NCBI GenBank assembly: GCA_964187785.1
Contig: OZ076409.1
Location: 61,320,001 to 61,384,000, forward strand
DNA from: Amphiscolops sp. MND2022
Lineage: Eukaryota
Length of the DNA: 64,000 nucleotides
Direction: 5' to 3'
Shown here in pieces: positions 331 to 60,189 of the stretch (positions are counted from its first letter, which is position 1; each line of letters begins with the position of its first letter). The notes under the pieces are model-generated. The model was not told the DNA's origin, did no database searches, and saw nothing but the letters and a program-made list of their open reading frames with translations. The position numbers and the translations under genes were made by a program.

Positions 331-968
331 TGTCCTTCAGTTGAACGGCCAGTATAGTCAATGTGCTTCGGAGGGATTCTAGTTTGAAAGTGTTTAGGTG
401 TCATTAGTGTCATTCTTTTAAAAACTTTGATAATAATGATTTTATTACTTAAGAACTAAATTGAATTACTGTCTGGGTCATTATCATCTAAATATCATGA
501 ATTCTTTTGACGGAATATTTTATAAACTATATATTCTCAACTGCTGCATTCTAAGATAGAAATTGTCAATTGTATAGAATGCTCTTTTTTAACACTGTTT
601 TCGTTGTCGAATTCTGGTGATTATGATGAGGGGTAGTCGTGTGTATTGTGATGACGTCATGCTGTGTGATCAGAATTCTGTCACCTGAAACAAGAGTAAT
701 TTTTGAAAAATTTCACCATCCTTTTTTAAGTACTTTTAATTCAAGTAATAAAATACGTTAACGTATTTTATTTCAAAAATAATGTGTACCTCTTAGACAA
801 TCGGAGAAATAGGAAAAGTTCAAGCCTGATACCGGATGTATGATGATTTCGACATATATCCATCAATGCGACATATAAAAGCTGCCAAGTGCTGGATCTT
901 TTCTGTTTATTCCACCCCCCCCCCCCAATTTAATTCCCCCCAGTTAGGCGGTCAAGTGAAATTTTAGT

Positions 969-1371
969 ACTCCTGACTAAGTGTGGTCCCTACAAAAATT
1001 ATCCAGCCGGCCTGAAAGCTCCTTACTAAGTGTGGTCCCTAGCAAATTTAGAATAGTCAACGTGGAGCAAACATTACATGTAGTTCAAAGCAGCAAAATT
1101 CAAATTACTAGCTTTTAGTGCTGTTACAGCCAATATGTATGGAACTTGATTTGAAGACGCTAGCATATTTGTTGTATGGCTCGGTCGCTCCGCTCCTTTA
1201 ACCAAGTAGCAACATTGAGGCATGGCCATATGGCACGTCGCTCCGCTTCGCTTCGCTCATGCATTCAGGACATTAGGGGAATGTGAACATACCTGACTAC
1301 GTTATAATACTAATTCCCACAAAATATGCAGGGACTACGATTATATTACAGGGACCACACTTAGTAGGGAG
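969..1371. mobile_element. Foldback/MITE with ACTAAGTGTGGTCCCT arms carrying cassette A
   Basis: ACTAAGTGTGGTCCCT at ~976 and ~1025 is inverted as AGGGACCACACTTAGT at ~1350-1365. Cassette A lies at 1163-1307. The right end abuts the truncated Bel/Pao RT. Confidence 0.65.
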
Positions 1372-1374
1372 GGA

Positions 1375-4300
1375 CGATGTCATCTAGTTCGTCTGCACGC
1401 TTTGGGCGGCTCTCGGAAATTTGTCGGCACTGTCAGTTGCGGTCCCCTTCAGAGCGTTATTTGTGCAAGTCGGAGATCCCTTTGACCTAAAGATGTGTCT
1501 TACGTACTGAAAAACAGCAACTTCAGTTAATGGATCCTCCCGCCATAAAAAACGAATGGACGGTTGGTCTTTCGGTATAACTCCCATTTGTAAGAACACG
1601 CCTTCAAGGTCGGCGGACACGGCCTTGGGAATTGACAGAATCTGAAGAGGATATGGATCAAACTTTGCAGTAGATCCGGACCGGTTAGAAGCGCGTTGTT
1701 CAAATAGTGTCCATGGAACTTTGCAGCACCATTGAGAACTCTTATAGCTTTGCCCGGTTTGTGCGGGTGTATTACGGGGTGACGTGGCAAGTACCATTCA
1801 CGACAGTTATCGGTTCGGAAGCATTCGGTCTTATCGACTCGAACGATGTACCCCTTTTCAAAATCATCTTTGATTCTCTTGCTGTACCTCTCTTTCAGTT
1901 GAGGATCTTTCCCAAGCCGGCGTTCTAACTACTTAAGTTGGTCAAGAGAAGAGAAGTAGTTGTTCAGCAACGTACTTTCTTCATCGGCCCACAACATCTC
2001 AACTTGGTAACGGCAGCCATCGTTGAATGTCGTCTCTTCGTAGTCAACTTGCTTGTAGGAACCATATGACTCCAGGTCATACCAGCTGCGAAGATCTTCG
2101 GCAAGAATAGAGTTGTTCTCTGAGCTAGTGACAGCTTTGAAACAATTCGAGAAAAGTCGCGTGGTGGAAGGAAGCGTACCACTCATTACCCAACACAACG
2201 GTGAGCGGACGGCTATTGGAGTATTCGGACGGTCGGCTTCGAAGTCCTCCAATGGACGGATACAGTGAAGGACATCCTGACCAAGGATCATCTCAACGTC
2301 TGAATAGCTGTACTTGCTGAGGGGGATCGGCTCTGAATGCGGGTAAGTCGTTTTCAATTTTACAATGTCCATAATGTCGTTTCCAACTTTCAAATCATCT
2401 CGAACGTAAAAAGTGACAGGAAACGATGAACAAAAGCCACCAGAATGAACGGGTGTCAACTTAAGCTCAGCTGTTCCCGAATCGATCACTTGTTGAGAGT
2501 TTTTTCCGGGTACGCTTAATTTGGTTGCTGAGCCCTTAACTTGTAGTTTGTCGGCTGTTCTTCTTGAAAACCATGAATGACTACAAGCAAGATTTTTTTC
2601 GGTGCTCGACGGCGATGGCAATTCGACTCATGTTATTTGCAACAAGCCTTTGACGTCGGTTATGGAAGGCAAACCGGAGCTTTCGCTGCCAGTTTGTCTC
2701 TGACTGACCTTTGTCGTCTTACTTTGAGAATTTTTTGCGTCCCAAGGGCTTTTCTGTGCAAAAAAGCTGTCAGAACCGTGAAGTAAAGGGTTATGAGAGC
2801 TCCTACAACCGTCTTTGGTGCATTTGTTTGGTTGCGGGCATTGCCGGAAAGAATGTCCTTCGCAGCAGAGTTTGCTCTCAGCGGCTAGCTTGGTTTTCTC
2901 TATCGGCGTTTTTTGGCGAAATACTGTACAACGCCAGAGCGGGTGGCTTTCCTTACAGACTACACATTGTTTCTCCTTTTTACCTTTGGCGACAGCGTTT
3001 ACTTGGGTACTGGTGGTCGCTGCAAAACTCTTGGTTCCTGTTCTGTTCTTGGTTATGGTAGTGACAGGAACGTCCTCGGTTCTCGGTTTATTGGAGGTGG
3101 CTTTCATTTTTCGTGAGCTTCTGCTTTCTCCTTTAGCCAACCGTTGAAGTCAATCAATGTCGGCCGATCCAAATTCCGTTTGACGGTGTTAGTTGACCAC
3201 GCATCCTTCAAATTTGGCGGAAGATTCAGAACCACTTGGCCCAGGAGGGAAGCACTCACTCGACAAATCCTGCAGGTAGTTCAACGATCGGAAAACACCA
3301 ACCAGTAAGAAGTTGTGGCAGAATAGCTGATGATGCTGACACTATTGTGCATCTTAACCGGCGGATAGTTGGCAAGTTAATGGAGGTAGGCACTAACAAC
3401 AGTGTGAGGTTGCCCAAACTTTCGTTCCAAGGTTTTCAGCTTGTCTTTGTACATGGTACCACAGTATGCAAACTCGGCGATAGCAGTCTTTGCCTTACCG
3501 AACACCAGTGTCTTCAGGTAGAGCAGTTTCACGTCATCAGTAAGGGGGCTGAATCGATGGCACTCTTGAACTGGCCGAACCACTCGTGCCATTGAAGTGG
3601 ATCTCCACTGTATTGTGCCAGTTTCCATTCCGGGAGGAGGTCCCTTTTCGATGACGCTAACAGTTGCGCAAGATCCTGAAGAGTGAAACTGTTAGTTACT
3701 GGTTGCGATTCGGTGATGAACGTAGGGGGTGCATACGGCGATGCATTTGAAGGAATGGCTGGGAAGGTAATTGGTACTGGTGCGCTGACCGGTGCGGGCA
3801 CTGTTGTAAGAGACGTCGGGTTAATATAGTATACGGTTCCTCCAGCGGTTACTGGAAAAATAGGCGAAGCTGTTGGGGCGACACTAGTAGTCGGCAAAAC
3901 TGTCGGGAACACGGCGGGGTTCGTAATTACCGGAGTTGTGGTCACAGACGGGTTTCTTGGTCCTATCGGGAATGTTTAGGCTGATAAGTTTGGAAGAAGA
4001 TAACTTGCCGGAACGGTGACTGTTGAAATCGGAAATGACGTGGCGGTCGCCAAGGGGGCCGATGCTGTAGCAGTTGCCGATAGAGCAATTGTCCGCTGAA
4101 GTGTTTTGGTTGATTGGGATACTTGGACGTGGCCAGTGTTTTGTAGGTAAACTATCGAACCTCGTCCCGTAACTAAAGGCACGTTGTTAGTCGTTGGTGC
4201 GGTTGGAGAGGCTACAGGAGTCACTACTGGGATAATAGGTAGTGGGGTTGTTGTTGGAGCTTCTCTGTTGACGGAATTTTGTGCTGCAGTAGTGATGGTC

Positions 4301-13548: not shown

Positions 13549-14379
13549 TCCTTCTTTCTCTTTCACCCTGATTTTCATAAGCCAAATCCCGACTCTTTTT
13601 AAGGCCAATCAAAACAGCATATTTCAATAATATGTTTATCGGATTTTGATTTTTTCCTTTAACCGTTTTTCCTTTGCGGCAGAAAGATATGGAAAACGTT
13701 TTCCTATGAAACCCTGTTGCAGCAATTTTGCAGGTGGTGGCTCAGTTTCTCCGTTTAGCATTCGGTCAGATTCTGAGCTAATTTTTGGTCAGTTTTTAAA
13801 ACAGAGTTTGGAATTCAAACGTTTTTTGAAAAGAACATGAAAGTTCATCAACAACGTCATTTTCCAAACCATACCTTACAGTTAGCTGAAATAATTTCTT
13901 GCAGCGTCCTATTTCAGCTTTTCAAAAATGTGAAACAGTCCTTGTTTGATTTGCATGAACTTTTTTATACGTTCTTTAAAGTTGCCAGCAAATTTTAGGC
14001 TGTTTCAAGCAAATCAAAAATTTGGTCGCAAGTTTTGCATGTTTTATTATGCATCAGTTCTATTTTTAAATGCAGCTAGGATCACAAATTCATCGCCATT
14101 TCAATGCAAAGTATCTCCAGTCACGTCATACGTTGCAAACTAGTATCATCTTCGGCGTTTTTGAGAAGTGGTAATCACATCACAGATGAGTAGTAATATA
14201 TATTTAATAATATTATATAACTAGGCTGAAAAACCGAGATCAGTTGATAGTTGAAACTTTCCGACTAGTTAAAAAACTTTCCGACCCTTCGTCTGCACTG
14301 AAGTTCTGAGGCGGAGATTGCAATCATGGAACGTTACGTTTGTTAATAATTAATTTGTCGAAGTTTACATTTCAATTTC
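11157..14379. repeat. Tandem triplication of a ~1.07 kb unit (starts 11157, 12222, 13297)
   Basis: Three near-identical units. Each has a 10-bp hairpin (one mismatch in copy 2), a 75-nt hairpin and a (TTTC)n tract that lengthens from copy 1 to copy 3. Confidence 0.97.
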
Positions 14380-15307: not shown

Positions 15308-15480
15308 CTTCAACAAATGTGATAATTTGTTTCAATGTGAATAATTATGAGCAAGAGAAAGAGTCAGTTATAAGTGAAATGGCGAATTCAATTTATTGTG
15401 TTTTGTCTAATCGAATTGTTTTGCTGAGAGAACTGAATAATGTATGATTTAAGGAGCGATGTGTTTGAGTGTCGTAAAAC

Positions 15481-16511: not shown

Positions 16512-17380
16512 CAGGGGTGCCCAAAAATTAATTGCAATTAATTGCTGCCACTTCAACGATGAAAATCAATTAATTTTAATTGCTCTTCTGAAAAATTAAT
16601 TAACTGCAATTAATTGCAATTAATTGTATCTCTACTCTACTAAATAACAACACAAATAGTAATCACAATAATGAATTCAAGCAACAATTGATGCAACAAT
16701 TTGTTCGTTCCAAAATCTTTGATTTATCTTCAGGAAAAGTTGCATCTCCAAATTCATTGGTAGCAGACTTTGACGCAAATCACCGAATGAATATGTAGCC
16801 GAACTGAAGAATCTTTCCACCAAATTAGATGTGGGCAATATGAATTTGACGTTCATATATTGCGATCCAGCTTTTTCAATTTTTCGTTTTTTAAGAAGAG
16901 TCGCAGCAAAATCGATTGAAGTTTCACTGTTAGTGTCTGTCGGTAGATTTGAATTAGGGAGCTTTAGCAGGATAACGGCTTCTTTTTCGTTATCAGATAG
17001 TTCGTTCTCAGAATCATTAATAATTTTGATAATCGCAGCCTCAAAATCCGGACTGTGAACAATATCGGACCGCGTCCCACAGTGTGACTCAAGTCCGGGA
17101 AATTCCTTGATAACTTCATCGAACAGAAAACGAACATCAGCAATATCCGTAGATTGAAAAGATTGGTAAAACCAGTGTTCTTTTTCTGCGATAAAACCTT
17201 CCCACACGAACATTTCCACAGGTTATCAGCTTGGTTATCAGCTACATGTATTACACCAATTAATTGCAATTAATTGGAACGAAAAAATTAATTAATTTTA
17301 ATTGCAAATTCTAGCAATCAATTAATTTCTAGCAATTAATTGCAATTAATATTCAATCAATTAATTTTTGGGCAGCCCTG
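16512..17380 (-). mobile_element. Internally deleted hAT-like DNA transposon (869 bp)
   Basis: 23-bp TIR CAGGG(G/C)TGCCCAAAAATTAATTG; perfect 8-bp TSD TTTTGGAC (16504-16511 / 17381-17388); AATTAATTGC subterminal repeats. A BED-finger fragment (WKCSCGK...TGFTNL) is joined out of frame to the transposase C-terminus (LPTSNLVERFFS...LFLKINQRFW). Confidence 0.92.
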
Positions 17381-17776
17381 TTTTGGACAATATTATCAAA
17401 AAATCAGGGTGAATTTTTTTTGAGTGAAGTGTCAAAACAGCTGTAGAGACAATCCTCTAAGTATTTACATTCATATAATATTCTCTTATTAGTGAAATAT
17501 TTTTATTCAAGAACAAAATGTGCTTTCGTGTTGGGGGGATTCCTAACAAGGTGTACCTGGGGGTTTCCTTTCTGCGGAAAGATTTATGGTTTTATGGACT
17601 GTGTCGGTTTTTGAGAGAAATGTTATCCACCATGTTTCAATAAAGGAATCTTTTCTGTTAACCCCCCCCACACACAGTAAGCGCGGAAGTTTTAATTCCC
17701 CACCACTATCAGTGATGAGTTTCAGTTGCAGCTAGAGTTATGAAATACTGCAATTTGACTGGTTGTTATTATAAAT

Positions 17777-18164
17777 GGTGTCCGGACATTACGCCCAAAG
17801 ACATTACGCCCAAGGACATTACGCCCAAAACGGACATTACGCCCAAATGTAAATTACGCACAAGGAAATTACGATAATGTAATCAGCTATGCTCACATAC
17901 CCCTAGTGCCCTAAATGCAGGAGCGAAGCGAAGCGGAGCAACGTGCCAATATAGCCATGCCTCAATGTTGCTACTTGGCGAAGGGAGCGAAGCGACCGAG
18001 CCATACAACAAACATGCTAACCTCTTCAAATAATAACCTGAAAAAAATCGCTGCTATTCTCTTAGAATAGCCTAATTTCCTTGGGCGTAATTTCCGTTTG
18101 GGCGTAATTTCCTTGGGCGTAATGTCCTTGGGCGTAATGTCTTTGGGCGTAATGTCCTAGAACC
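17777..18164. mobile_element. Foldback element (MULE/Phantom-like) with GACATTACGCCCAA arms carrying cassette A
   Basis: GG...CC termini; arms built of ~15-bp tandem subunits; 9-bp TSD ATTATAAAT / ACTATAAAT (17768-17776 / 18165-18173); cassette A at 17874-18017. Confidence 0.85.
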
Positions 18165-18322
18165 ACTATAAATTCAATGATAATTTCACTTGACCGCTTA
18201 ACTGAGGGGGAATTAAATTGGTGGGGGAATAATTAACAGAAAAGATCCCAATAAAGTTCAACAAATTTTATTATCTAGTCTAATTAACCAGTTGAGCAGC
18301 GACCACTGACGCTTTTTATATT

Positions 18323-19375
18323 TAGGTCGCCATGAACCCGACGAACACAATTTTCGACCCTGAGAAAATCAGTTCGATGGTTCTGACCAAATTGAAGGAC
18401 ACGGCTGAAGCCTATCTTGGTAAAAAGTGACAGATGCAGTGATCATAGTGCCACCTTACTTCAATGACGCCCAGAGACACGCCACTATTCAGAAACTCGA
18501 ATTCCGATTATCCAGAAGCTGTTGCAAGACTTTTTCAGCGGCATCAATTCAACAGAAGTATCAATCCGGATGAAGACGCAACAGACCAAGTCGCGATTCT
18601 GTCGGGTCCGATACTGACCAGACCGTCCAAGACGTTTGCTTCTGGATGTTGGACCTTTGTCTCATTGACTCGAAACCGCTGGCGGTGTTTTGACAACACT
18701 AGTGAAACGAAACACGACCATATCATTCAAGAAGCCGCAAAATTCAGACAGATAGCCAGCCAGTGGTGATGATTCAAGTTCTCGAGGGGGAGCGGGCAAT
18801 GACTAAAGATAACATTTTTGGGAAGTATGAACTCTCTGGGATTCCCTCAGCTTCTAGAGGTGTACCCCAGGTTGAGGTAACGTTTGATATCAACGCAAAC
18901 GGAATTCTGAATGTTAGCGCCCGCCCAGGATCCAAGCACTGAAGTTAGCGAACGCATAACAATCACAAATGACAAGGGAAGACTGTTTCAAGCGGAGATT
19001 GACAAAATGGTGGTGAATGCTGAAAAATTCAAAGACAAAGTTGAAAAAGAACGGAGCCGAGTTGCTGCCAAAAATGCATGTGAGAGTTACGTGTTTCAAG
19101 CCAAAGCGGCAGTTGAGGACGAAAAAGTGAAAGACAAAATTGCAGAAAATGGCAAAAAGATGGCTCTGGAGAAAGTTGTCACGATAATCAGATGTCTCGA
19201 AACAAACCCATCGGCAGATAAGTTTGAAGATCAACATGAGATGGAAAAAGTGTTCATGAAGACTTTCATGTATGGTTCTGATGGCGCATGATTTCCTGGG
19301 ACTGCTGGGTTTGCTCTTGGTGCGAAACCCGGAAGTTAAGATTCTAGCGGACCAACAATCAAGGAATTTGATTAA
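18323..19375 (+). pseudogene. hsp70: Cytosolic HSP70 pseudogene with frameshifts and large internal deletions
   Basis: Colinear fragments [11 protein letters not shown] / [21 protein letters not shown] / YFNDAQR / RIPIIQKLLQDFF / SINPDE / [17 protein letters not shown] / [14 protein letters not shown] / [22 protein letters not shown] / ITITNDKGRL. Ends GPTIKEFD*, a degenerate GPTIEEVD. Confidence 0.95.
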
Positions 19376-20074
19376 ACAACCTGATTTTTGTTCCATTTAT
19401 AGTTTAGAAGGAAGAAATAGTGGATTATTTTTCTATTTACTCATGAATTCAAGCAATGTTATTGCACTTTAGTACTTATTTTTCATTAGGCAGCGGGTAT
19501 CGATTATCGAGAACATTCAGAAGACAAGCTAAAACTTACTTCAAACAACAACTTACTTCAAACAACAACTTACTTCAAAAAACCGGAAGAAAGAGATACT
19601 GCCTGTGTACTGGACTTACATACCCAAACATTGCGATCCTGCTAATATTTGTTCTGTGCGTGTTGGAACTGCAAAAACATTTAAAAACTAGCCTTCATGA
19701 TAAATTGAATTGGAATTAAAATTTCCTTGGGGCAATGCTAAAGTCTTTCTTATTTTCAATACTTCTATATTCATTACTATTTATATTATTTTAAAGTATC
19801 ATTTTACTTCAGAGGATAGTTGTATGAAATAACTGTTTTATATTACAAACAACTACAAACAACTTTCTACCCAGTTTCTACAAACAACTGTCAGATCTAG
19901 CGAGGGCGTTTGACGTCCAAGTACTAACGCGTCAATGCACAACGGGAAAAACGTCTAAATATTTAGACGGTATTCTCGTTTCAAGGTGCTTTTTGAAGAT
20001 TTTAAACACTAATATATCAGCCCAAATAGCTGAACAAAGAGTAAGAATTTTGAGTTGAAACGACGTTTTAGATG

Positions 20075-21570
20075 GGAAATTTGCACTGTGTGCAGTGACT
20101 CTGCAAGAGCCAGAGACGGATGTCTTTCTTGGACCAATCTGTGGTGGGATATGTGACAAGTTTGGAATCGAATATCCGGACACCCTCGGTGATTTTGTCC
20201 AGTATAGCAGCCTTGGGTTACTCAAGAACTTGCTGTAGCTGATCATCCCAATAGAACGTTGACGACGGCTCGAGATACTCGCGGAAAGGTGCAATGTCGT
20301 TGCGGAGGGATTCGCAGTGCGACACTTGGTTGATGAAGCCGAACCAAGATCGGATGTCAATGATGTTTTGTGGCGTAGGCAAGTCACGGATTGCGCAGAT
20401 TTGTTTGTCACTGAGCTGGATGTTGTTCGGAATGGTGACGAAGCCAGCAAACTCCACCGTGTCGGAGCCAAATACAAACTTTTTGGGATTCTGCACAATT
20501 CCGTGTCGACCGCAAATGTCAAGCCTGCGACATGTTTGGAAGAAGTTGTCTTCGAGTGTGTCTGCCCATAGGCATGTGTTATCGATGCATTTGGTTTTGT
20601 CGGGAAAGTTTTTGAGAATATCGTCGAACTTTCTGGAATCTTCTGGTGTACCCGTCCTGTGACGCCCCGTAGCCCTGTGGGCAAGATTGTACCGACCCCA
20701 TGGGGTATGAAACTAGTGAAATGGCGATCTTCTTCTCGCATTGGCACACCGTGATACCCGTTCCAAGCATCAATGATCGTCTTCTTGGTCCCTGAAGGTA
20801 CCAGCGTTGCCTGGTGAAACGGGGATTGGCGTGTTTCAAGGGCAGCATGGTTTTTGAGCACCTGCATGTCCTTTGTGCGTCGTGGCTTGCCGTTTCTATT
20901 CTCAGCCGTGACCATTCGTTGGCACCACGTAACCGGTTCTTCCACTGGAAATGACTCCAATACACCGGGTTTGACAATTCTGTCGATAAACACTTTGCTT
21001 TCTATTGCCAATGTAAGACCATGTCGTTGGTGTAATTGACTGCTCCAGATGGCTTGTGAGAGCAGTTTTTCGAGAACTTGCAGACAGACTTTAGCTTGAA
21101 CCGGTAAGTGAGCGGCAAAATTCCTAACATCTACTTCTCTGTCGTGTGCTTTCATTGTTTTGAGAGTCATCCTGCTCACCATGGCGCTATCAGCCTTCAC
21201 TGCTAGACACTTGATTGCTGCCAGAGCGTTTGTCTCTGTTGCCGTGGCAATGTTCGAATGGGAGCGGTGGAGGTCCTTGCGTAAACTGCCTTCACAACAT
21301 GCGAGGAGCTGTAAAGTGGCATCATAGTCGGCTATGCGAGTGGCTGTCTTGTAGGCGTCCCTCCTGGTGATGAAATGCTCCCAGTCTCCACTCATACTCT
21401 TTTTAGACACTTTTGGGCAAGACAATTTGTCAGGTTCAGCCTGTTGACAGGCGCCGGGTGCATGTGAATACCCGTGCCCCAAGAAATGTGCGACGGCTTG
21501 AGCTGCTTCAATATTCCCCGTGGCGCAGATACATCCTTCAATGGGGCAATTGAGCACCACCACTGGTCGA
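20075..21570 (-). mobile_element. Ty3/Gypsy LTR retrotransposon remnant (gag joined to RT, partial RNase H)
   Basis: Gag-like LQLLACCEGSLRKDL...LAVKADSAMVSRMTL; RT PVTWCQRMV...GKPRRT, DAWNGYH, PQGYGASQDGYTRRF, NPKKFVFGSDTVEFAGF, RSWFGFINQV; RNase H TDWSK.DIGFWLLQ. No protease region seen; frameshifted. Confidence 0.9.
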
Positions 21571-21789
21571 CTAGTGAACGACACGTTCACTAGTCGATTC
21601 CATTATTGGACCTCACGATATATGATGCTAAAAGGTAGATATAGGAATATGTTTGAAGCACACGATACGAGACAGCACTAGGTGATATTCATGAGCAAAA
21701 CAGTTTCAGTTCCGAACCAGTTCAGGCTTCGTTTGGGAAAGGAGTAAATGCTCTTTAATGTTTGCAAGATCTTTGTAGATTGCAGAAGT

Positions 21790-23220
21790 TGCTCTTCCAC
21801 TTACAGAGAATAGAGGATCATTTAGACTTTATGGACCTGTGTTTGTGGAATAAGTGTCATAAAACATTTGTTTTATAAAAAGATCCTCGGAAATAAAATG
21901 ATAATTAAAAAAACATCTATACATTTCACGATCTGTAATAAAAGAGTTTACGAAATCGTACAGTGTCGGCATACTTTTCCAAGAGAGCTGGATAATAAAA
22001 CTTGTACAGGTTCTCAAGAAGTACAAGTTTTTTGGCATTCCAAATTTGTTTCCAAAAGAAAACTATAAGGCGCATCCAAATTGTTAGCAATTCTCTTAGT
22101 TTTTTTCCATTCAATAATATTGTTTTCCAATAAGTCTGCCTGCGATTTTGGGCCGAACGGTGAACCAAAAATAAAAAGTGCATCTTTCGTTGGTGATTCC
22201 CAAAAAACGTTTTGGATAGATGCTAAAGCTGTCAATAGTCGTTTTTCAACGATGACTCCAAGGAAACTATTTTGAATTTCGTGGGTGTTTTCCGCTTCAA
22301 CGATTTTCGTTACTTTTTTTCCATCATCGAGGTACCATAAGGATTTTCGACTCTAAATTGTCAATGAGATCCGGACTGGAATCCGACAATAGAGCTGGAG
22401 ACTCCTGATAGTTTTGTTGGGTACCTCCACAAGATTTGATTACCGAATCACCGTGAAAAAGAAACTTTGATTTTTGTACGTCGAGTATGTAAGTTTTTCA
22501 AAAATTTTCTCGATAATGAATTGTCGGTTTTTTGAATTGAAATCGTTTTCAAAGTCATTTTTCAAAATGAAGTTTTCTTTGGGCTGGGATTTTCTATCAG
22601 ACAACGGAAACAAGTGAGGCCATTTCAGCGCCCTTTTTCTTCCCTATCTTGCTTGACGTGATTCGAAGACATGGTATCTGGCGCATTTTGCGGACAACCG
22701 ACGGAAAGTGTTGCATACAGCGATCGGAGGACATAGGGCCTTTTTAAGCACAAATAAAATTTGTTACAGCTCTGAGAAAATTCATTCCAGTTTGGCCGTT
22801 CATTCAAAGTTTGGAGCGAAATGTCGTTGTGGAATGACCTAAGAGCCTCGTGGAGGAAGAAGTACGAGGTGGAGAAACTCGAGAAACAATCGGTTTTGTG
22901 GGGATCGGAACAGAGCAAAGTTCCCTTTGCGGATGTTTAATCTTGAGGTTCGCGTAGTTGTTGACAGTGAAATTGCAATATTCATCGTTGTCAATTGCTG
23001 TCTGATTCCTGCCTTAACATTACCTTCATCTAATTCAGAGCAGACGAAGTCGTCGACCCATTTGGCTTTTCTGTTGCTGTTTTCCGTCGCGTTCCGATTT
23101 TTTCTCAATGACACCATCCCGTATGCGAAGGTTTTTTTTTGCACTGAGTGATAACATCTGACGTTTACCTTCACAGGTTATTTGGTATGAAGTCATTTGG
23201 CTGATTTTTTTTCGTCGAGT
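21790..23220 (-). mobile_element. Degraded non-LTR retrotransposon RT (CRE/R2-group-like)
   Basis: Fragments LDEGNVKAGIR, DFENDFNSKNRQ, WYLDDG, FGSPFG, PKNLYFLRT spread across frames with many stops. The clade is inferred from WYLDDG and GSPxG. Confidence 0.7.
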
Positions 23221-23378
23221 CATTTGGCCTAAACATCGGTAGCCAAATGAGGATAAAATTGAGCCAAATAAAGCAATGGCTCAAAACAACACTCTTAAAG
23301 ATCAAAACTGATATGAATTCTCAACAGAATGTTTAGGAGGTAGAGAAAAGGAATGTTTTGATTTTGTATGAAGAGTTA

Positions 23379-23516
23379 GCATTTTTGTTGTTTGACTCAC
23401 TTGGTCGCTTCGCTTTCTTCGTCAAGTAGCAAAATTGAGGCATGGCCATATGGGACATCGCTCCGCTCCTACTTAGGGCACAAGGGTATGTGAACATAGC
23501 TGACTACCCCATTATA
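23379..23516 (-). repeat. Cassette A copy (degenerate)
   Basis: Matches GGTCGCTTCGC...GTAGCAA.ATTGAGGCATGGCCATATGG...GGGTATGTGAACATA.CTGACTAC. Flanked by weak GAGCCAA(A/T)T repeats. Confidence 0.8.
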
Positions 23517-23586
23517 AGAATGAAAGGAAATCTGTCACGCGTTTTCAAGTTAGTGATTTCGAGCCAATTGACATTGAATTAAGCCA

Positions 23587-24070
23587 GGGCACGGTAATAC
23601 GTTCGAACGCATAAGTTCGAATTTTAATTTCGAATGGACTAAGTTCGAATTTTCCAAAAACCGGAATAACTTCGAATCACTGTGTTCGAACTTTGAACTA
23701 AGTATAAAACGTGCCTCTGATTTTCCCCCATTTCATCTTGTGCCCCGCTTATGGTCCCATCTTGCTAAGGGAGGTCGAACAGGAGCAAAGATCTACCGGG
23801 AACGGAGATCGCGAAGCGATCGTAGTGGGAGCTGGTCTTTGCGACGACGAGGGCGAGCGTACATAAACCGGATATGCCCCACATTTCAGTTTTTAGATTT
23901 CTTTAAATCCTAGGCGGTGGAGCTCTCAGGATCTTGTGTGAAGGATGTCCAGTTTACACCGGATATGCCCGTCCTGAAAATTGGAACTTGGTATCTTCAA
24001 ACTATTCCATTCGAAGTTATTGCACTAGTTCAAATTCGAGCTTAGTAAATCGAACTTATTGCCCGAAGCC
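23587..24070. mobile_element. Foldback element with AAGTTCGAA arms carrying cassette B
   Basis: Arms of repeated (T)AAGTTCGAA / TTCGAACTTA. Flanking direct repeat AATTAAGCCA at 23577-23586 and 24071-24080 (9-10 bp TSD). Cassette B at ~23711-23882. Confidence 0.75.
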
Positions 24071-26350
24071 AATTAAGCCAAGTGTCCAAATGAATAAGGC
24101 AGAAGGACTTTAACCCAAGTGACTACAATACAAGTGACCAATTTCCCTCGAGGTAGTTTTTCTTGGTAAAAAACACAGCTTAGAGTGGAGAGCAAAAAGC
24201 ACCACAAGGCTTTTTCGACGGGGTTTCACAGTTATGCTGAAGCGCGTGAAATTGAGATTTATCGTTAAAAAATATACAGTTTATACACTTTTCAAGCGGT
24301 GGCCATGGAAGTACATGGTTCTTTAGGCGAGATCAGTGAAATATTTTTGGGCTAGGGACAATTTGCCGAAAGTCATTTTGCCGAAACCCAATTCAATTTG
24401 CCGAACGTGAAGGACAATTTGTCGATTTTTTTTGGCAATTTGTCCTTTTGAATTTGCCGAATATTGTAAGGACAATTTGCCAAATACCTAGCGTTTTCAA
24501 ATAACAATGTTTTTGACCGTCGGATATGCCCCCATTTCCTCTAGTGCCCCGCGGGTGGCTGTAAATAGGTTGAGTTTTTCTGGTTGAAAGGGCAGAGGTC
24601 GAACCTTTTGATCGAATCGCAGGGATCGGTCGATCTTGATCGGAGCCTTCGGATCGCAAAATTCTTTGTTTGCCTCAAGTCGATTGACTATCATAGTGTG
24701 GGGCATATGCTGTGAATGCACGCTCGCCCTCACCGTCGCAAAAACCAGAGGCATGTAAATCCGCTAGGTGACTAGGTGAGCTAGGAACTGGGTAACTAGG
24801 TAAATATTGACTAGTTGACTGGGTATTCTATTTTTAAAAACTGGGTAAATCTTTTCGAAATACTTTTGTCGAAGTAATTGCGTCGATGCCATTGCAAATG
24901 TAAAATGGTCAAACAATGTTTTGGCTGTCGGATATGCCCCATTTCCTCTAGTGCCCCGCGGCCACTTGGGGCCGCTTATGTTCCCATCTTGCTAAGGGAG
25001 GTCGAACAGGAGCAAAGACCTACCGGGAACGGAGATCGCGAAGCGATCGTAGTGGGAGCTGGTCTTTGCGACGGTGAGGGCTAGCGTACACAAACCGGAT
25101 ATGCCCCACATTTCAGTTTTTCGATTTCTTTAAATCCTAGGCGGTGGAGCTCTCAGGACCTTGTTTGAAGGAAGTCCAGTTTACACCGGATATGCCCGTC
25201 CTGAAAATTGGAACTTGGTTTCTTCAAACTATTCCATTCGAATTTATTGCACTAGTTCATGTTCGAGCTTAGTAAATAGAACTTATTGCCCGAAGCCAAT
25301 TAAGCCAAGTGACCAAATGAATAAGGCAGAAGGACTTTAACCCCAGTGACTACAATACAAGTGACCAGTTTCCCTCGAGGTGGTTTTTCTTGGTTAAAAA
25401 AACAGCTTAGAGTGGAGAGCAAAAAGCACCACAAGGCTTTTTTGACGGGGTTTCACAGTTATGCTGAAGCGCGTGAAATTGAGATTTATCGTTAAAAAAT
25501 ATACAATTTATACGATTTTCAAGCGGTGGCCATGGAAGTACATGGTTCTTTAGGCGAGATCAGTGAAATATTTTTGGGCTAGGAACAATTTGCCGAAATT
25601 CAATTTGCCGAAACCCAATTCAATTTGCCGAACGTGAAGGACAATTTGCCGATTTTTTTTGGCAATTTGTGATTTTGAATTTGGCGAATATCGTAAGAAC
25701 AATTTGCCAAATACCTAGCGTTTTCAAATACCAATGTTTTTGACCGTCGGATATGCCCCCATTTCCTCTAGTGCCCCGCGGGTGGCTGTAAATAGGTCGA
25801 GTTTTTCTGGTTGAAAGGGCAGAGGTCGAACCTTTTGATCGAATCGCAGGGATCGAATGGAATGCGGTCGATCTTGATCGGAACCTTCGGATCGCAAACG
25901 TTCTTTGTTTGCCTCAAGTCGATTGACTATCATAGTGTGGGGCATATGCTGTGTATGCTCGCTCGCCCTCACCGTCGCAAAGACCAGAGGCATGTAAATC
26001 CGCTAGGTGACTAGGTGAGCTAGGTACTGGGTAACTAGGTAAATAATGACTAGTCGACTGGGTATTTTATTTTTAAAAACTGGGTAAATCTTTTTGAAAT
26101 ACTTTTGTCGAAGTAATTGCGTCGATGCCATTGCAAATGTAAAATAGTCAAACAATGTTTTGGCTGTCGGATATGCCCCATTTCCTCTGGTGCCCCGCGG
26201 CCCCTTGGGGCCGCTTATGTTCCAATCTTGCTGAGCGAGGTCGAACAGGAGCAAAAACCTAGCGGGAACGGAGATCGCGAAGCGATCGTAGTGGGAGCTG
26301 GTCTTTGCGATGGTGAGGACGAGCGTGCATACACCGTATATGACCCCATA
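23745..26350. repeat. Tandem duplication with a ~1.23 kb period and breakpoints inside cassette B
   Basis: CTTGCT(A/G)AG(G/C)GAGGTCGAACAGG recurs at 23761, 24988 and 26227 (offsets 1227 and 1239); the intervening sequence is duplicated. Confidence 0.93.
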
Positions 26351-26897
26351 TTTATTTATATGACACCATATATTAATTTATAAGGTACCAAGTTTCGTCT
26401 AAAAGCAGATAGTTTTGATCTATGTTGTCGTTAATTGTCTCAATTTACAGTTTTCTGACCATTAGTTTTGCTAAGTGTCTCAGAATTCAATGTACCTAGA
26501 CGATTTTCCTGAAAAACCTAGTAAATTTTCCACCCAGTAACGATTTATATAGTCAACTAGTCAACTAGTTGATTTCTCACACTCCAAAGCCCAGCTCCCA
26601 CTAAGATCGCTTCGCGATCTCCGTTCCCGCTAGGTCTTTGCTCCTGTTCGACCTGGGCTTAGCAAGATGGGAACATAAGCAGCCCCATGGGGCCGCGGGG
26701 CACTAGAGGAAATGGGGACATATCCGAGACACGTTTTAAACTTTTCTAGAAAATTCTATCTGCGGCAATTCGGTTGCTTTCCCAAAAATCAAAATTTCGA
26801 TCCGAGTTGTTTCAATCCTATTCAAAAATTTGGTATGTCGACCCGAGGACTAACTCTGATTTTCGATCCCGTTCCTTCGACGTATTTCCGCCCACCC
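25780..26897. mobile_element. Foldback element with GGGTGG...GGTCGA arms (nest level 2)
   Basis: Perfect 9-bp TSD GTGCCCCGC (25771-25779 / 26898-26906) lying inside cassette B. Carries an inverted cassette B split into 25937-25987 and 26586-26725. Confidence 0.85.
25988..26585. mobile_element. Foldback element with CTAGGTGA-type arms (nest level 3)
   Basis: 9-bp TSD AAAGACCAG / AAAGCCCAG (25979-25987 / 26586-26594) inside the level-2 cassette B. Arms of ~8-bp CTAG(G/T)TGA units; own cassette B at 26168-26349. Confidence 0.78.
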
Positions 26898-28356
26898 GTG
26901 CCCCGCGGCCTACTGGGGCCGCTTATGTTCCCATCTTTCTAAGCGAGGTCAAACAGGAGCAAAGTCCTAGCAGGAACGGAGATCACCAAGCGCTCGTAGT
27001 GGGAGCTGGTTTTGCGACGGTGAGGGCGAGCGTGCATACACCGTATATGACCCCAAATTAGATGAGGAGAAGTACCTAATCTATTTTAAACGCTTCGCAG
27101 GAGCAAAATTCGGATACGGGACAATTTGCCGAAAGACAAATTGCCGAAACCAAATTTGCCGAACGTGAAGGACAATTTGCCGAAAATTATTCGGCAAATT
27201 GTCCCGCATCCATTTTTTTACGAGTCTCTGTAAAATGCTTTGTCGTTTGCACGACAATCAACGAGACGGCAGCCTTTTGTGGCAACGGATCTCAAGGGCT
27301 CTTCAGATTGTCCATGTGGCCTATTTTCTAGGAACTGTGAGGGACAGAGATGCCTTTCAAAGATATTGTCACTTTTAGACATTTTTTCGTAAACCTGTAT
27401 ATAATTGCAACTTTTTTGAAACTAGTTTCTGCCAATCGACTGGGATAGTGGCTGGGGCGAGCGGGAATAACGTCCAAGGAATAACGTCTAAATTCAAAAC
27501 AGGAATAACGTCTAAAGGTTTAAACGTTATTCCCGTTTTTTTTTTTACGGTTTTCCTGTTTGTTTAGACGTTTTTCCCGAGAGTGAAAAAATTGATTTCA
27601 AAATTTATCGGATTTGAAAACTGACTATTATCAGATTACATGGTAGAATTCGAGATCATCGAAGGCCGACGTAAAAGCGCAGTTGTCTACATCTGCAAAA
27701 ACAGACTTGTTAAAAGCTAGGGGCGGGAATGTCGTCTGAGGAGTAACGTCTAAATTTTACTTATTTTTCAGGAATAACGTCTAAAGATTTAGACGTTATT
27801 CCCGTTTTTTAGATGTTATTCCCGATTTCGAAATATTGTTTTTTGTGCTGAAAAGTTTTGCCCTTGCACTAGTTTTCAGGAATGAACTATGAAATAATCG
27901 AAGGCCACGAAATACGAGCAGAAGTCTATGTGTCTGATGGGTACTTGTACCTAAATAAAAAAAAAACGTCCAAAATATCAATAATCTATGCAAATACGTC
28001 CGAAAAAAGGAATATCCTATAAAATCCAGAAAATATCCGAAAGTCATCACAATACGACTGAGAAACGGGGAAAAACCTATGAAATTGGAACAAAATCATA
28101 TCGTTTAAGATCTAAAACTAAGTGATATAAAATATAAAACGTGCCCTGGATGTGTCCCCATTCCTTCTAGTGCACCGCGGCCCCTTGGGGCCGCTTATGT
28201 TCCCATCTTGCTGAGAGATGTCGAACAGGAGCAAAGACCTAGCGGGAACGGAGATCGCTAAGCATATGCCCTACCCCGCATACACCGCATATGACTTACG
28301 TTGTGATATTTTCGCTTTAAGAAAACCTTTTTCGAAACATGAATAACGTCTATATA

Positions 28357-28556
28357 NNNNNNNNNNNNNNNNNNNNNNNNNNNNNNNNNNNNNNNNNNNN
28401 NNNNNNNNNNNNNNNNNNNNNNNNNNNNNNNNNNNNNNNNNNNNNNNNNNNNNNNNNNNNNNNNNNNNNNNNNNNNNNNNNNNNNNNNNNNNNNNNNNNN
28501 NNNNNNNNNNNNNNNNNNNNNNNNNNNNNNNNNNNNNNNNNNNNNNNNNNNNNNNN
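28357..28556. other. Assembly gap (200 N)
   Basis: Run of N. Confidence 1.
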
Positions 28557-29441: not shown

Positions 29442-29785
29442 GGGTGGCTGTAAATAGGTCTAATTTTTCTGGTCAAAAGGACAGAGGTCGAACCTTTTGA
29501 TCGAAGTGCAGAGATCGAATGGAATGCGGTCGAATTTTATTGTATTTGTTGTATGGCTCGGTCGCTTCGCTCCCTTCGCCACGTAGCAACATTGAGGCAT
29601 GGCCATATGGCACGTCGCTTCGCTTCGCTCCTGCATTCAGGGCACTAGGGGTATGTGAACATATCTGACTACGTTATAAAAATTTCGATCCGAGTTGTTT
29701 CGATCTAATTCAAATAATTTGGTATGTCGACCTGAGGACTAACTCTGGTTTTCGATCCTGTTCCTTCGACCTACTTCGCCCACCC
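29442..29785. mobile_element. Foldback element with GGGTGG...GGTC arms carrying cassette A
   Basis: Same arm family as 25780-26897. Perfect 9-bp TSD CGCTTTTTA (29433-29441 / 29786-29794). Cassette A at 29543-29679. Confidence 0.88.
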
Positions 29786-32340
29786 CGCTTTTTAGACATT
29801 CCACTTTTTAGACGTTATTCCGCTTTTTAGACTGTTATTCCACTTTTTAGACGTTATTCCGCTTTTTAGACGTTATTCCACTTTTTAGACGTAATTCCCG
29901 TTTTTTAGAAGTATTCCCGTTCATTTCAGACTTAGATGTTATTCCTTTAGACGTTATTCCCGGTGGACTTTGAGACGTTATTCCTCTTCCCCGTTGAAAG
30001 CGAAAATATCATAATGTGAGGCATATGCTGTGTATGCACGCTTGCCCTCACCGTGGCAAAGACCAGCTCGCGATCTCCGTTCCCGCTGGGTTTTTGCTCC
30101 TGTTCGACCTCGCTTAGCAAGATTAGAACATGAGCGGCCCCCAAGGGGCCGCGTGGCACCAGAGGAAATAGGGCATATCCGACAGCCAAAACATTGACCA
30201 TTTTACATTTGCAATGGCATCGACACAATTACTTCGACAAAAGTATTTCGAAAAGATTTACCCAGTTTTTAAAAATAAAATACCCAGTCAACTAGTCAAG
30301 TTTTACCTAGTTACCCAGTATTTTAAAAATAAAATACCCAGTCAACTAGTCAAATTTTACCTAGTTACCCAGTACCTAGCTCACCTAGTCACCTAGCGGA
30401 TTTACATGCCTCTGGTCTTTGCGACGGTGAGGGCGAGCGTGCATACACAGCATATGCCCCACATTATGATAGTCAATTGACTTGAGGCAAACAAAGAACG
30501 TTTGCGACCTGAAGGCTTCAATCAAGTTCCCAATTTCAGACGTTATTCCGTTTCTTAGACGTATTTCAATGATTTTTGGACATTTTAGGCCTGATTTTAA
30601 ACATTTTTTCCCGATTTTAAACGTTATTCTATGATTGATGTAAGCGCATCAGAGAAATATATAGAGTGGTCAGAACAAAGCCAGAGTGACTTATGGACAC
30701 TAAAATGCCCACAGTAGGCAGTAAAAGAAATCATCAAAAGTTATTTCTGTTTTTCAGACGTATTATGATGGTTTTATGATATTTTGGACCTTTTCCGATT
30801 TAGACGCTTCCCGATTTTAGACGTTATTCCTCTTTTTAGACGTTATTCCCCTGTTTAGACGTTATTCCCGTTTTTTTGACGTTATTCCCTAATATTTCAG
30901 TTTAGATGTTATTCCTTTAGACGTTATTCCCGGGGGACCTTTAGACGTTACTCCCTCTAAGTGGCTGGAATGAGTAGTTTGTTGGTTGTGTTTTTTGTTT
31001 CTAATGGGATAGTGGCTGGTATGTGGTTTCCTCCTTTCGTTGCAGACTACGGGTGTGTGTCCTCTCCACCTAAGATTATGTCACACATGAAACTTGATTG
31101 ATTGATCAAGATCCATGATATCTGATACATAGAAAAGTTCACAAATTAGTTTTGGGTATCAAGTTTTCAGGTAGGGGATCCGTGAATTTGTAGGAACTCT
31201 TTTCAAGTTAACAACACAATTAAGTTAACAATTAAAAAGGTTTCCTGGTCTAAATTTATCATCATGACAGGGATTTTGTTCACTGAAGAATACCAACATT
31301 TAAATTCGGCAAGCACAATCCTTTTTTGGTGCTTCATTTTCTCATCCCCCCGTGATCATCCAATAAGCATACAATTAGTTTTTTTCTTTTTTATCCAATG
31401 GTTTTTTATTATTATCAATAATTGATAGCGTACTTTTAATAATTGTAATAATTGATTTTTTAAAATGTGACGTGGTATGTGTATGTATTATCATACTGAT
31501 TCTTAATTTACTTGTATCAGAAGACTTTAAATTCGGCAAGGCTCCTGCCCTCCAATTTTGATAAATTGGTTCCTTTTATATGGACCCATCCATTGCAAAG
31601 CCGACAATTTACCCTGAGGGCTGCAGAGCGTTTCAGGTTTCGTTGTTTTTAATCGAAACTCAACCTCAAAACCTAACCACTTGCAGGAATACCACATTTG
31701 GATGTGTGCAAATCTCCCCAAAAAGGCGCAACAATAGTGCGCTTATAGTTAGATCTCAGGTTATCAGATCACAGGCGTATGTCAAATTTAGGTCTATGAT
31801 GATCCCCGAGATCAGATCTTAGGTTTAGATGCTAATAGACTTGGCACTGTTTTAACATGACACCGGATTAATGATGACGATCTATGTCATCTGAGAGAAA
31901 AACAGCCTAAATTTTGACAAGTGCTTCATTTCCAGATTTGAACAATAGCGTTGATTTTTAGGTGATCACTGATGATTATCAATGAAAGCGTAATGTACAA
32001 CTTCAACAAATCTGGCCAATCTCATTGTGGATAGATTCGGTGAAAACAACAGCTGTTCCGATTCTTGAACAAAATAAAGTATTTACTGGAAACATCAGAT
32101 AACCTATTTCTTCAACTTCACAAGCTAGAAACGTTCACATCGAGAAATGTTTTCAAAAAAGCGCTTTCCTTGCCGAAAAAACTATTTTTGCCATAAAAAT
32201 TTTGGGCTACATTTTTCTGTTGGAAGTTGGGTTTTTTCTGGGAGTTTTTTCGATGTTGCGTCTCGTTCTCCTTCTCCTGTCAATTTTTGCAGTTAGTGTC
32301 AAGTGTAGTTTTAGCGGACTTTTTTTCACTTTTGCCAGTA

Positions 32341-33016: not shown

Positions 33017-33250
33017 TTTTTAGTCGGCGCTTCATGAAGTGCAACGCGACTATTATAGTGACTTTTTTCAATAAACACGAACTGACCAAAGTAGTTCTTC
33101 AAAAGTTCTACGAAATACTATGCTGTCACATTGAACCATTTCGCCTAGCGAACTGAACCAAGAAGGTTTTTCCGCGTAACATACAGTACTGGGCGAGACG
33201 AAAGTTTCCCCCTCAGATTTTTTCGACATTGTGAGACGTTTGCCAGCAGG
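33017..33250 (+). mobile_element. Family C Helentron-like element, 5' part only
   Basis: TTTTAGTCGGCGC...GCGACTATTATAGTGAC head as at 55961; cut off by the family A copy. Confidence 0.6.
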
Positions 33251-33255
33251 CCATA

Positions 33256-33838
33256 TTATTATTATTTCTGCTTTAGCAGGAATAATTTTGAAATCTCAAA
33301 ATGTCTACTTTTTTCAGTACAATTCTTGTCACGATACTGAATAATTCAGATTTTGTTCGGCAGTGACTATAAGCGTAAGAATTAACTTTCTCAAGCTGCC
33401 GACGACAATTCAATTCTCGTGCGATGGAACGAGCGAGTGGTAATTATGCATTCGTAAGCTGACGTCATTGAGATGAAACGAGCGAATGTTCGTAATGGTG
33501 CTTTCGTTGTGCCGAGTTATTGAGACGAAGCGAATGAGTGTTGATTATACTTTCGCGGAGAGCTTCGCCTGCATTCAAATATATATTTGCTTTAGTCCGA
33601 GATATACTACTATTACTACTAAAAGACTGAATTGATTCTAGTCAGAATTGATTCTAGAAAGAAATACTTGATGATATTTACATGTACAGATTTTTTAACA
33701 ACAGATTTAAAGGCGGTATAAACTGGTAGAGTGCGCTAAATAATGATTAAACAGGAGTGTATTGGTAATCCAGATATGATTTTATTATTATGGAAGATTG
33801 AAGCAGAAGTAGTAGTGTGCCCCGGAGGGGCCTATTTT
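33256..33838 (+). mobile_element. Helentron-associated (HINE/DINE-like) element, family A
   Basis: 5' palindrome ATTATTTCTGC-TTTA-GCAGGAATAAT; 3' subTIR GCAGAAGTAGT; hairpin GCCCC-GGA-GGGGC then CTATTTT. Other copies at 45824, 59151 and 63131. Confidence 0.8.
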
Positions 33839-36024
33839 CTAGCTCAGTTTTTTTTTCAACAGTTCATTGGTACCTAGATTAATTTGGATGGTACAAGCAT
33901 TAGAAAAAGTGAATATGTCTCCAAATCTGAGAAAAATGTTTTTTTTTACACAAAAAATGGTTGTATTCGTCCAAAATTCAGTTTTTGGCGAAATCCAGTT
34001 TTCTTGTTACTACAAAAACTTGTTGTTGCCCAAAAAAACTAAAATTCTGAAAAATGGGGCGCGCAGCGACAGGGGCTCACCTAACCAAAATGAAAGCCCA
34101 ATACGACCTTTCCAATGCGCTATAGTTCGTTTCTCTGGTACCCTTAGTTGAGATATTAATGATTTAAAAAAGTTATTCAGATTTTTCGAAAATTTGCAAA
34201 AACACCCAGGTCAATTGGGTTAAGCTTAACTGTTGTTGTTTTTTTACTCATCAGCTTAACTCCTTGGACTTCCATTTAACTCTCTGGTTTTGTGCCTCTG
34301 GAGACAATTTTTTCTGGCGTAATTGAACTCATGACTCAAAATTTGTTCACAATCAAAAAACGGGCGCCCGAAAGTTTTCGAGACAAATCAATGATGTCAA
34401 TTGAAGTTTTTAACCAAAAACGCATTTACCACCAAACCGAAATGTTATCAGTCGCTATTCGAGACTTCTCAACATCAGCCTGCTCTGTCCGTTCTACGTC
34501 AGAAACGAAGCTTTAGAAAAACAACGTTCAGCGATTGTCGACGAGGGTAAAACAGATTGACCGACGACTTGGACTCCTTGAGTATTTTCAGTAGATAGAG
34601 TTTATATTTTCAGTATAAAATTCTTGGCTTATAGTGTTGTTAGTTGGCGCTTTGCTTCTGGAAGTATTTTCTTGGGTGGAGCGGAATGCTTCTTCAAAAT
34701 CGTCTAAGTCCGGAAATTTCTTCAGTTGATATGTCGCTGAGCGTCACGTCGATTGGCTCAAGGGAACATGAATTTCCACCGTTGTCTTTTCTTCATAGGC
34801 CCCAAGAGGTAAGTAATTCTTCTCTGGATTTGGCTGGCACGCACCCTTCAGTATTGAACAGTAGTTGCGGAAATGTTTGGTTTGGTTCATTCGAACTGAC
34901 AATTGCGCCAAAAAATTCTTAACAGGATCGCGTTTTGTTTATTCGAGAATCCTTTCTACATACTGTTTGATCTTAATTAATCAAGGTATGACTTTCCATG
35001 AACCGATCGATATGTGTCTTCAAAAGCTCTGTGTTTCGAGTGACCATACCAGCGGGTATTTGAGAGAATCGGCCGGGAAAACTCCTTTAAGGAACTGCTG
35101 TGTTGTTTGAAGGAAGGTATATTCAAGACGGAGTCCAGAATGCAATGAATCTCACAAAGGGAATTGTCATGAGAGTCTAATGGAACTCCTCTGCACGTAA
35201 AAACACCTGAGTGCCTTGAATGAGACTCTATCATCGAATTTCAGTTGTCGCTGAAAGGCTATACGGTTTTCAGGTTGCAAGTGGCTTTCCACCAGTGCGC
35301 TTTCAGCTCACCACTACGGCCAGGCCGTAGTTTCCAACACTTCCTTGAAAATCTATGTACTGATTTATTTGACTGCAGTGATGCAAATACGTACCGCGAT
35401 GCTAAATAGGGTTAATGGTGCGGTGATCTGACAAACTCATGTATCCAATGAGCCTTGTCAAGAACGGCTAGCAGTAGTCTGCACGAAAAACATTCATTAG
35501 GAACATTGTTTTTGCAATGCGTGACTGAAGTTTGCGTTTGTGTGAACCCCCAGGAAAGAGACAGAATGAGTGATGCCAGGCTGATCCTTATTCTCAAATT
35601 TTTCTTCGCACGCCGCATGCTTCCGGATGGTCTACTTTGAGGTTTGGTTGAGCATTTGGAAGGAAAATGTTTTTTTTTCCGAGCCCACCAAAAGTTTTCT
35701 GACATTTGCTTTCATGGTTCTCCCCTTTTTGCCTGAAGAGAATGAACGAATCGCGGATTGTCGCATTTGTGCCGTCTCATGTCCCTGTATCTCTAGGATT
35801 ACGTCTCTATAATCCGTGTACTATGATATTGGATGACGCACTGTCTACCATACTGTACTAAATGAATTGGACCTCTGATTGTAAAAATTGCTCAGGAGTC
35901 GATTAAAGGAGACCAAAATCTTCTGAAGGGAAAAGTAAAGTCGAAAACTCTAGACTGAAAGTTTAATGAATTTTAATGTTGATTACTTTTTGTTTGAAAA
36001 TTCTGATATCAATATAGAAAAACT

Positions 36025-59742: not shown

Positions 59743-60189
59743 GGTGGTTTCCCAAATGACATAAATGCAAATAACATAAAAATAAATTAATTCCCAGAAA
59801 ACATAAAAGTACATTGAATTCCTATTTAACATAAGAATAAAACATTATTATAACGTAGTCAGATATGTTCACGTACCCCTAGTGCCCTAAATGCAGGAGC
59901 GAAGCGAAGCGGAGCGACGTGCCATATGGCCATGCCTCAATGTTGCTACTTGGCGAAGGGAGCGAAGCGACCGAGCCATACAACAAATATGCAAACCTTT
60001 TCAAATAAATCAAGTTCCAACATATTGGCTGTAACAATGATTCAGCGCAAGCGAGAAAATGACGCAAGGTTGAATTTCAATTTTCAACCAATCAGAAGTG
60101 CTTAATTGTTTTATGTTTTCTGGGAATCAATTTATTTTTATGTTATTTGCATTTATGTCATTTGCATTTATGTCATTTGGGACGTAATC
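59743..60189. mobile_element. Foldback element with CCCAAATGACATAAATGC arms carrying cassette A
   Basis: ~57-bp inverted arms (59750-59808 versus ~60110-60182); cassette A at 59848-59992. TSD not resolved. Confidence 0.75.

Follow-up and report, generated by a model that had tools for sequence, protein, structure and literature searches.

Three transposable elements with unlike arms, lying one inside another and each carrying the same cassette, raise the question of whether that cassette is only what the elements carry or also where they land. The question is posed by a locus of Amphiscolops sp. MND2022, contained in a stretch of 64,000 nucleotides (GenBank assembly GCA_964187785.1, contig OZ076409.1, positions 61,320,001 to 61,384,000; the window), where the elements, here designated L1, L2 and L3, occupy positions 25576 to 27211 and share the cassette B. 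A sequence-only reading had described them as a three-level nest of foldback elements in which the cassette serves both as cargo and as preferred landing site, forming a self-targeting guild. In the present analysis, the cassette is found to be a shared core of more element families than had been claimed, while a preference for landing in it is not borne out. The window is repeat-rich animal DNA (~33-48% GC), and all counts, shares and tests refer to this one window; the labels L0-L4, E1-E11 and A-D were coined in this analysis.

The nest and its duplicated parts

The three-level nest was confirmed, with its ends refined (Table 1). The element L2 lies in the cassette of L1, bounded by the target-site duplication (TSD) GTGCCCCGC (9/9; 25771-25779 and 26898-26906), and L3 lies in the cassette of L2 between AAAGACCAG and AAAGCCCAG (9 bp, 8/9). 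When the inserts are removed by coordinates, the L1 (+) and L2 (-) cassettes align end to end with the intact cassette of L3, the core identity among the three being 89-91% and their orientation alternating across the nest (+, -, +). Meanwhile, the arms are mutually dissimilar, with z-scores between families of -1.2 to 1.7 relative to shuffles, compared to 53-55 for the same-family control, the arms of L2 and of a further element, L2'. Different arms around a common cassette, the other structural claim of the sequence-only reading, thus stand, as the arms are unalignable and the cassettes nearly alike.

The outer element is the least secure level, having a weak TSD (ATATTTTT/ATTTTTTT, 8 bp, 7/8, in T-rich DNA) and a right block (27118-27202) that for the most part repeats the left arm on the same strand (82%) and is inverted at the outer tip only; this block could be a separate mini-element. 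In both L2 and L3, the left and right arms show no more than weak inversion (z 2.7-4.4). The entry of L3 into L2 may have preceded that of L2 into L1, because the TSD of L3 is more worn than that of L2, but a single mismatch is too little to settle the order. The nest is unlikely to be an assembly artefact, since the cassette copies are 9-11% apart and TSDs are present. Regarding the flanks of L1 (25450-25575 and 27212-27340), Pfam gave no match for the right one, and their translations recall what we take to be the C-terminal endonuclease region of R2/CRE-type elements, retrotransposons that lack long terminal repeats (LTRs).

Part of the nest was later copied twice. The tandem duplication postdates the complete nest, because all five segments are 95-97% identical, although uncollapsed haplotypes could conceivably be its source. 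Its junction cassette (~24928-25112; listed at 24914) combines the 5' flank of L3 (31/32) with the 3' flank of L0 (40/42), another element described below. The inverted copy, whose L3 arm is 97.5% and whose L2 part is 92.4% identical to the nest, may derive from this nest or a different copy of the composite, and its junction cassette at 30100 joins the 5' flank of L3 to the 3' flank of another host. With two junctions inside it, B acts as a recombination substrate. The three copies of the L2-L3 junction trace to one event, so that the alternative raised by the sequence-only reading against itself, one historic unit simply amplified, holds for the extra copies of the nest. By the 5' flanks of their cassettes, L1 and L3 belong together, as do L2, L0 and L4 (L1-L2 16/33, L2-L3 15/32, L0-L2 21/30), and these alternating flank types rule out that an incoming element copied its target cassette.

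Table 1. Positions in the window of the nest, its duplicated parts and the other carriers of cassettes A and B
Feature	Positions	Strand	Description
L1, outer element	25576..27211	+	GACAATTTGCCGAA-type 15-bp subunits; ~508 bp minus insert
L1 cassette B, 5' piece	25747..25779	+	terminates in left TSD of L2
L1 cassette B, 3' piece	26898..27059	+	starts with right TSD of L2
L2	25780..26897	+	GGTCGA/GATCGA-type arms; inserted in L1 cassette
L2 cassette B, 5' piece	26586..26727	-	
L2 cassette B, 3' piece	25936..25987	-	
L3	25988..26585	+	CTAGGTGA/CTAGTTGA-type arms; inserted in L2 cassette
L3 cassette B, intact	26167..26352	+	direct repeat of 12-13 bp at ends (10/12); small internal hairpins
Tandem duplication	23745..26210	+	23745-24971 / 24972-26210; segments 95-97% identical
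Inverted copy of L2-L3 junction and L3 left arm	30013..30529	-	joined within B to L4-type 3' flank
L0	23586..24070	+	fourth arm type, TTCGAA subunits; TSD 9/9; cassette B ~23712-23885
L4	27455..30958	+	fifth arm type, GGAATAACGTCTAAA subunits; TSD 8/9; rearranged; cassette B ~28145-28297
L2'	29442..29785	+	L2-family arms, 91-92% to L2; TSD 9/9; cassette A ~29536-29682 (-)
E4	23175..24152		GTCATTTGG-type arms; cassette A ~23367-23519 (-); ends approximate, convincing TSD absent
E3	17777..18164	+	GACATTACGCCCAAA arms; TSD 8/9; cassette A ~17868-18030
E11	59743..60185	+	CAAATGACATAAATG-type arms, 98% inverted; cassette A ~59848-60005; convincing TSD absent
E1	968..1375	-	ACTAAGTGTGGTCCC arms; cassette A ~1155-1313; ends approximate, TSD not found

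Cassettes A and B between unlike arms

A profile search with B (nhmmer) detected 12 pieces in the window, all within 23.7-30.5 kb, which come from five independent carriers, each of its own arm type (L0, L1, L2, L3 and L4), and from duplicated pieces, the core identity across the five arm types being 78-93%. A related cassette, A, is present in five copies from 1.1 to 60 kb, each flanked by arms (identity 73-92%), and a core of the A/B kind is found with nine arm types in total. The role of the cassette as shared cargo is therefore wider than claimed, with B in five arm types and A in five hosts; the earlier account was incomplete in that it contained neither the two further nearby arm types with B nor the two duplications of part of the nest. 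It also made no mention of L2 arms paired with a different cassette: arms of this one family hold B at 25780 and A, not B, at 29442, in the same orientation.

The likeness of the cassettes A and B is limited to one orientation (15/15 pairs with z 1.5-6.6, compared to -0.7 to 1.8 for the reversed control), and it is concentrated at both cassette ends while the middles differ; the A profile alone detects B weakly (E 1.8). As judged from these alignments, a common descent of A and B is likely, not proven. All ten independent cores (10/10) are flanked by arms, although elements of this type take up ~13% of the window, and nhmmer found no solo core within the 64 kb. Some of the arm types may be distantly related, as a few pairs of arms from different families are weakly similar, with z-scores of at most 5.6 (e.g., the right arm of L2 with the left arm of L4). 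A gap of 200 N (28357-28556) lies within L4. Two short foldback-type pieces (37263-37348 and 38100-38165), by eye related to the ends of L4 and L1, are cassette-free.

Regarding the nature of the cassette itself, several candidates were rejected. A structured RNA is not indicated by the folding energy (z -1.1 and +0.8) or by covariation, which is absent (1/42 and 1/25 pairs), and Rfam matched none of the cassettes at E values up to 5. A short interspersed nuclear element (SINE) was discarded because tRNA likeness, Rfam match and tail are all absent and the end repeat is similar across different hosts. One cassette end has, by eye, a hairpin followed by T's, and no host-specific TSD was found around the core. 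The Helentron-associated HINE/DINE-1 units resemble the cassette as short non-coding units that have terminal hairpins and whose core is conserved, but the end repeats of the cassette are direct, not inverted, and cassettes occur between arms only (PMC4067079, in its description of these units). The subterminal inverted repeat of 11-15 bp expected of such units is lacking, the best inverted matches at the ends of 12 cassettes being 8/11 to 10/15, compared to 12/12, 10/11, 10/11 and 10/13 in a control family, C. This family (33250-33842, 45820-46354, 59145-59636 and 63120-63458) has a subterminal inverted repeat of 10-12 bp and, close to the 3' end, a GC hairpin, being Helentron/HINE-like by the characters set out in PMC4067079, and one of its copies lies inside a decayed hAT-like element. 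Exact-pattern scans for B and A in metagenome, viral and prokaryote contigs, where little animal DNA is expected, gave 0 loci. In the open-access literature, no description was found of a core common to different families with terminal inverted repeats (TIRs), which does not establish its absence from print.

Landing sites and the rest of the window

For the landing sites, eight insertions were tested (D, E3, L0, L1, L2, L3, L4 and L2'), each having a TSD of 8-9 bp and ends that are either foldback-type or long and inverted; the list was curated by hand from a scan plus a reading of the window. The elements E1, E4, E11 and a small one near 37263 were left out for want of a convincing TSD, and a hAT-like element (16512-17380) was left out as of another type. 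Seven of the eight TSD-bounded elements carry a core. Two of the eight landed in a cassette and three in other parts of such elements, with the remaining three elsewhere. L0 is inserted in an arm of E4, outside any cassette, L2' in an AT-rich part of an L4 arm, and E3 inside the TIR element D (17646-18247, TSD 8/9).

Relative to the local share of cassettes (22%), two hits are not a significant excess (P=0.56), nor are they in a test conditional on the four insertions into cassette-bearing hosts, where 1.16 hits are expected (P=0.33). Since the core accounts for ~37% of L1 or L2 when empty, the two hits need no targeting. Within the cassette, the target sites of L2 and L3 lie more than 100 bp from each other and have no common sequence (89% and 44% GC), and a preference for GC-rich targets was ruled out by a TSD GC range of 0-89%. 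The L2 family has one cassette hit (L2) and one miss (L2'), so that independent insertions of one family do not recur at the same target, within a small number of cases. Nesting in general is enriched (5/8 compared to 13%, P=0.0016, post hoc). The preferred landing site of the sequence-only reading thus found no backing, and self-targeting is unsupported on this sample, although eight events would still accommodate a moderate preference.

The window also contains genes and gene fragments. A small heat-shock protein gene (14711-15331, -; PF00011) is a single open reading frame (ORF) with nine relatives at 69-91% identity, and a broken HSP70 C-terminal fragment (18330-19380, +; PF00012 on 18911-19288) is probably a processed pseudogene. 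An InaF-motif ORF (10728-11036, -; PF15018, E 1.5e-12) stands directly upstream of a triplicated unit of ~1070 bp (11157-14379, copies 95-96% identical). A Tc1/mariner element (47002-48295) has inverted ends of 54 bp and a Tc1-like transposase interrupted by one stop. Two hAT-like elements (16512-17380 and ~44490-46670) have ends rich in AATTAATTGC, the first having a perfect 8-bp TSD and splitting a repeat related to 7350-7706 and 51131-51377. Decayed coding pieces at ~1380-5300 and 19900-21700 are LTR-retrotransposon-like, with DUF1759 at 3380-3691 and, by eye, a reverse-transcriptase-like stretch at ~20218-20712 for which Pfam gave no match. In addition, there are a tandem unit of 172 bp (54223-54737 and 41731-42087), a 123-bp tandem family (60734-61006, with relatives at 8241, 51621, 56200, 57938 and 61939) and a near-perfect palindrome (57102-57341, 240 bp, 95%).

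Element class and origin of the shared core

The elements L0-L4 and the carriers of A would work like Mutator/Foldback non-autonomous elements, a likeness in anatomy. The anatomy named by the sequence-only reading was recovered, and it is from this anatomy that the class of transposase is suggested. TSDs of 8-9 bp, within the range of 8-10 bp typical of such elements, are found in L2 (9/9), L3 (8/9), L0 (9/9), L4 (8/9), L2' (9/9) and E3 (8/9), and the element ends start with GG or AG, differ over ~7-9 bp and then enter the shared subunit, giving short non-inverted terminal motifs. Tandem Repeats Finder reported arrays of 15 bp for L1, E3 and E11, arrays of 15-20 bp for L4, none for L2, and for L3 only in the copy near 30358. 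Arm inversion is clear for E3, E11, L4 and L0 (z 10-42) and moderate for L1 (6-8). Foldback arms are described as accompanying several transposase classes (PMC3169594).

Among known systems, Tm1 of Meloidogyne (Mutator/Foldback, Phantom-subclass) is described with short asymmetric terminal motifs, 8-10-bp TSDs without consensus, non-coding interiors and nested insertions, as here, and with arms built from unequal numbers of ~14-bp repeats, which have a counterpart in some of the elements here; one of its subgroups has a common interior motif, a histone hairpin, but in that account the shared interior is tied to one arm family, whereas here one core family is found with nine arm types (PMC3169594). 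The Muta1-14 Mutator-like elements (MULEs) of Aedes aegypti are similar in their 8-9-bp TSDs, in their many coexisting families with non-autonomous derivatives and, in part, in their 9-15-bp subterminal repeats, and Muta1 in yeast is reported to lack a target sequence preference; their derivatives, as presented, share arms and vary interiors, whereas here interiors are also common to different arms (PMC5225508). In maize, the Mu heteromorphs are reported to exchange interiors between elements with divergent TIRs, recombination uncoupling TIRs from interiors and nested or close elements being the proposed substrates; those are clades within a single superfamily, whose TIRs can be aligned and whose interiors are coding, in contrast to the short non-coding core and unalignable arms of this locus (PMC10401008). 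For Pack-TIRs, template switching (gap-filling or FoSTeST) is described as inserting nearby DNA in animal TIR elements, including FB4, with break points leaning to the interior and a bias to nearby fillers, but the filler there is host sequence with varied ends, unlike one repeated, similar-ended unit found inside elements only (PMC8277862). Small TIR elements insert in one another in multimers formed by miniature inverted-repeat transposable elements, some families being the target of many others (PMC5172404), foldback loci of Galileo accumulate secondary insertions at hotspots (PMC2775673), and in rice MULEs a single nested event was amplified many times (PMC3903597); a shared interior as target or cargo does not figure in the accounts given of these three. 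ModuleOrganizer, as described, handles modules within one family (PMC2955051).

The explanation towards which we lean, if slightly, is that a portable core of 170-190 bp (A/B) has been swapped among non-autonomous Mutator/Foldback-type families in a local pile-up. Each arm family would be mobilised in trans by a transposase reading its own arm subunits, as suggested by the anatomy. Breaks in these elements would be repaired by template switching or ectopic recombination, through which interiors could be gained or exchanged, and a core already common, amid piled-up elements, would be a likely donor. The locus at 23-31 kb would then be a pile-up of elements landed in one another, and targeting of cores would presumably be absent genome-wide.

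Several observations weigh against this explanation. The domain scan covered 101 of the 105 ORFs of the window (at least 85 aa), two repeat copies and two gap-crossing ORFs lying outside it, and detected neither a MULE nor a FLYWCH domain. The symmetry of the L2 and L3 arms falls far below the 93% given for Tm1 (PMC3169594, where it describes the arms). The core boundaries agree within ~15 bp among hosts, whereas random gap-filling should leave ragged ones. All five B carriers start within 3.9 kb and the remaining 57 kb contain none, a clustering (P=0.011 when the three non-nested carriers are counted) that would not be expected if the B core were genome-wide. Compared to the cassette share of the whole window (3.4%), the hits are nominally enriched (P=0.028), a value inflated because the window was picked for its nest. 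As the similar boundaries and the tight clustering stay unexplained, local capture, a mobile core and targeting are kept alive.

Capture at the locus would mean that B is private to it, the elements having come in with A or with neither core and having taken B from their neighbours by gap repair or conversion; a guild spanning the genome would then not exist. This is unlikely, although it would agree with the confinement of B to 23.7-30.5 kb, with the two cassette-junction events and with the nearby-filler bias described for Pack-TIRs (PMC8277862). The divergence of B in L0-L3 (9-15%) is also close to that between the arms of L2 and L2' (8-9%), ages that would fit a capture after insertion. 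However, the 5' flank groupings show that incoming elements did not copy their target cassette, unless a defined unit exists, capture of the full length five times over with almost the same boundaries is improbable, and the related core A is spread over 59 kb. Were the core a mobile unit itself, perhaps rolling-circle-like, settling in foldback centres and hitch-hiking on arms, the location of all ten cores between arms despite the low coverage of such elements would be accounted for, as would the similar end boxes and differing middles of A and B and the likeness of L2' to shortened L2 arms with A inserted. Such a unit is quite improbable, as no solo copy was seen in 64 kb, its ends do not reach the inverted matches of three of the four control copies of family C (8/11 to 10/15 compared to 10/11-12/12), and host-specific TSD, Rfam or tRNA match and covariation are all absent.

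The self-targeting guild, in which a host protein or a tethered transposase would direct insertion to the cassette, is likewise quite improbable. Two of the five B carriers do lie inside a B cassette, all of them are clustered, the nominal excess over the window share points the same way, and the landing site of L2 adjoins an 8-bp cassette hairpin. Against it stand the two distant and dissimilar target sites, the core carriers L0, L1, L4, L2' and E3, which missed cores, the divided record of the L2 family, the non-significant local and conditional tests, and the A cores, none of which is interrupted (0/5). A bolder version of the sharing, which is offered tentatively and seems somewhat unlikely, takes the A/B core as a selfish module of 170-190 bp with conserved end boxes, spreading among unrelated Mutator/Foldback families. 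It could spread by entry into element centres or by boosting the amplification of the arms that bear it, and it might also gather and recombine its carriers. Such a module would be the cut-and-paste counterpart of the central domains shared in SINE superfamilies.

That small TIR elements nest is ordinary and already known, and the real point of interest is the shared, exchangeable core, not targeting. A core common to several arm families inverts the usual rule of shared ends and variable interior. If this is true genome-wide, the exchange of the core would be a route to new non-autonomous families, with new arms and an old core; the core would supply homology for rearrangements, as in the two junctions within 7 kb here, and repeat libraries would be misled into merging unrelated families.

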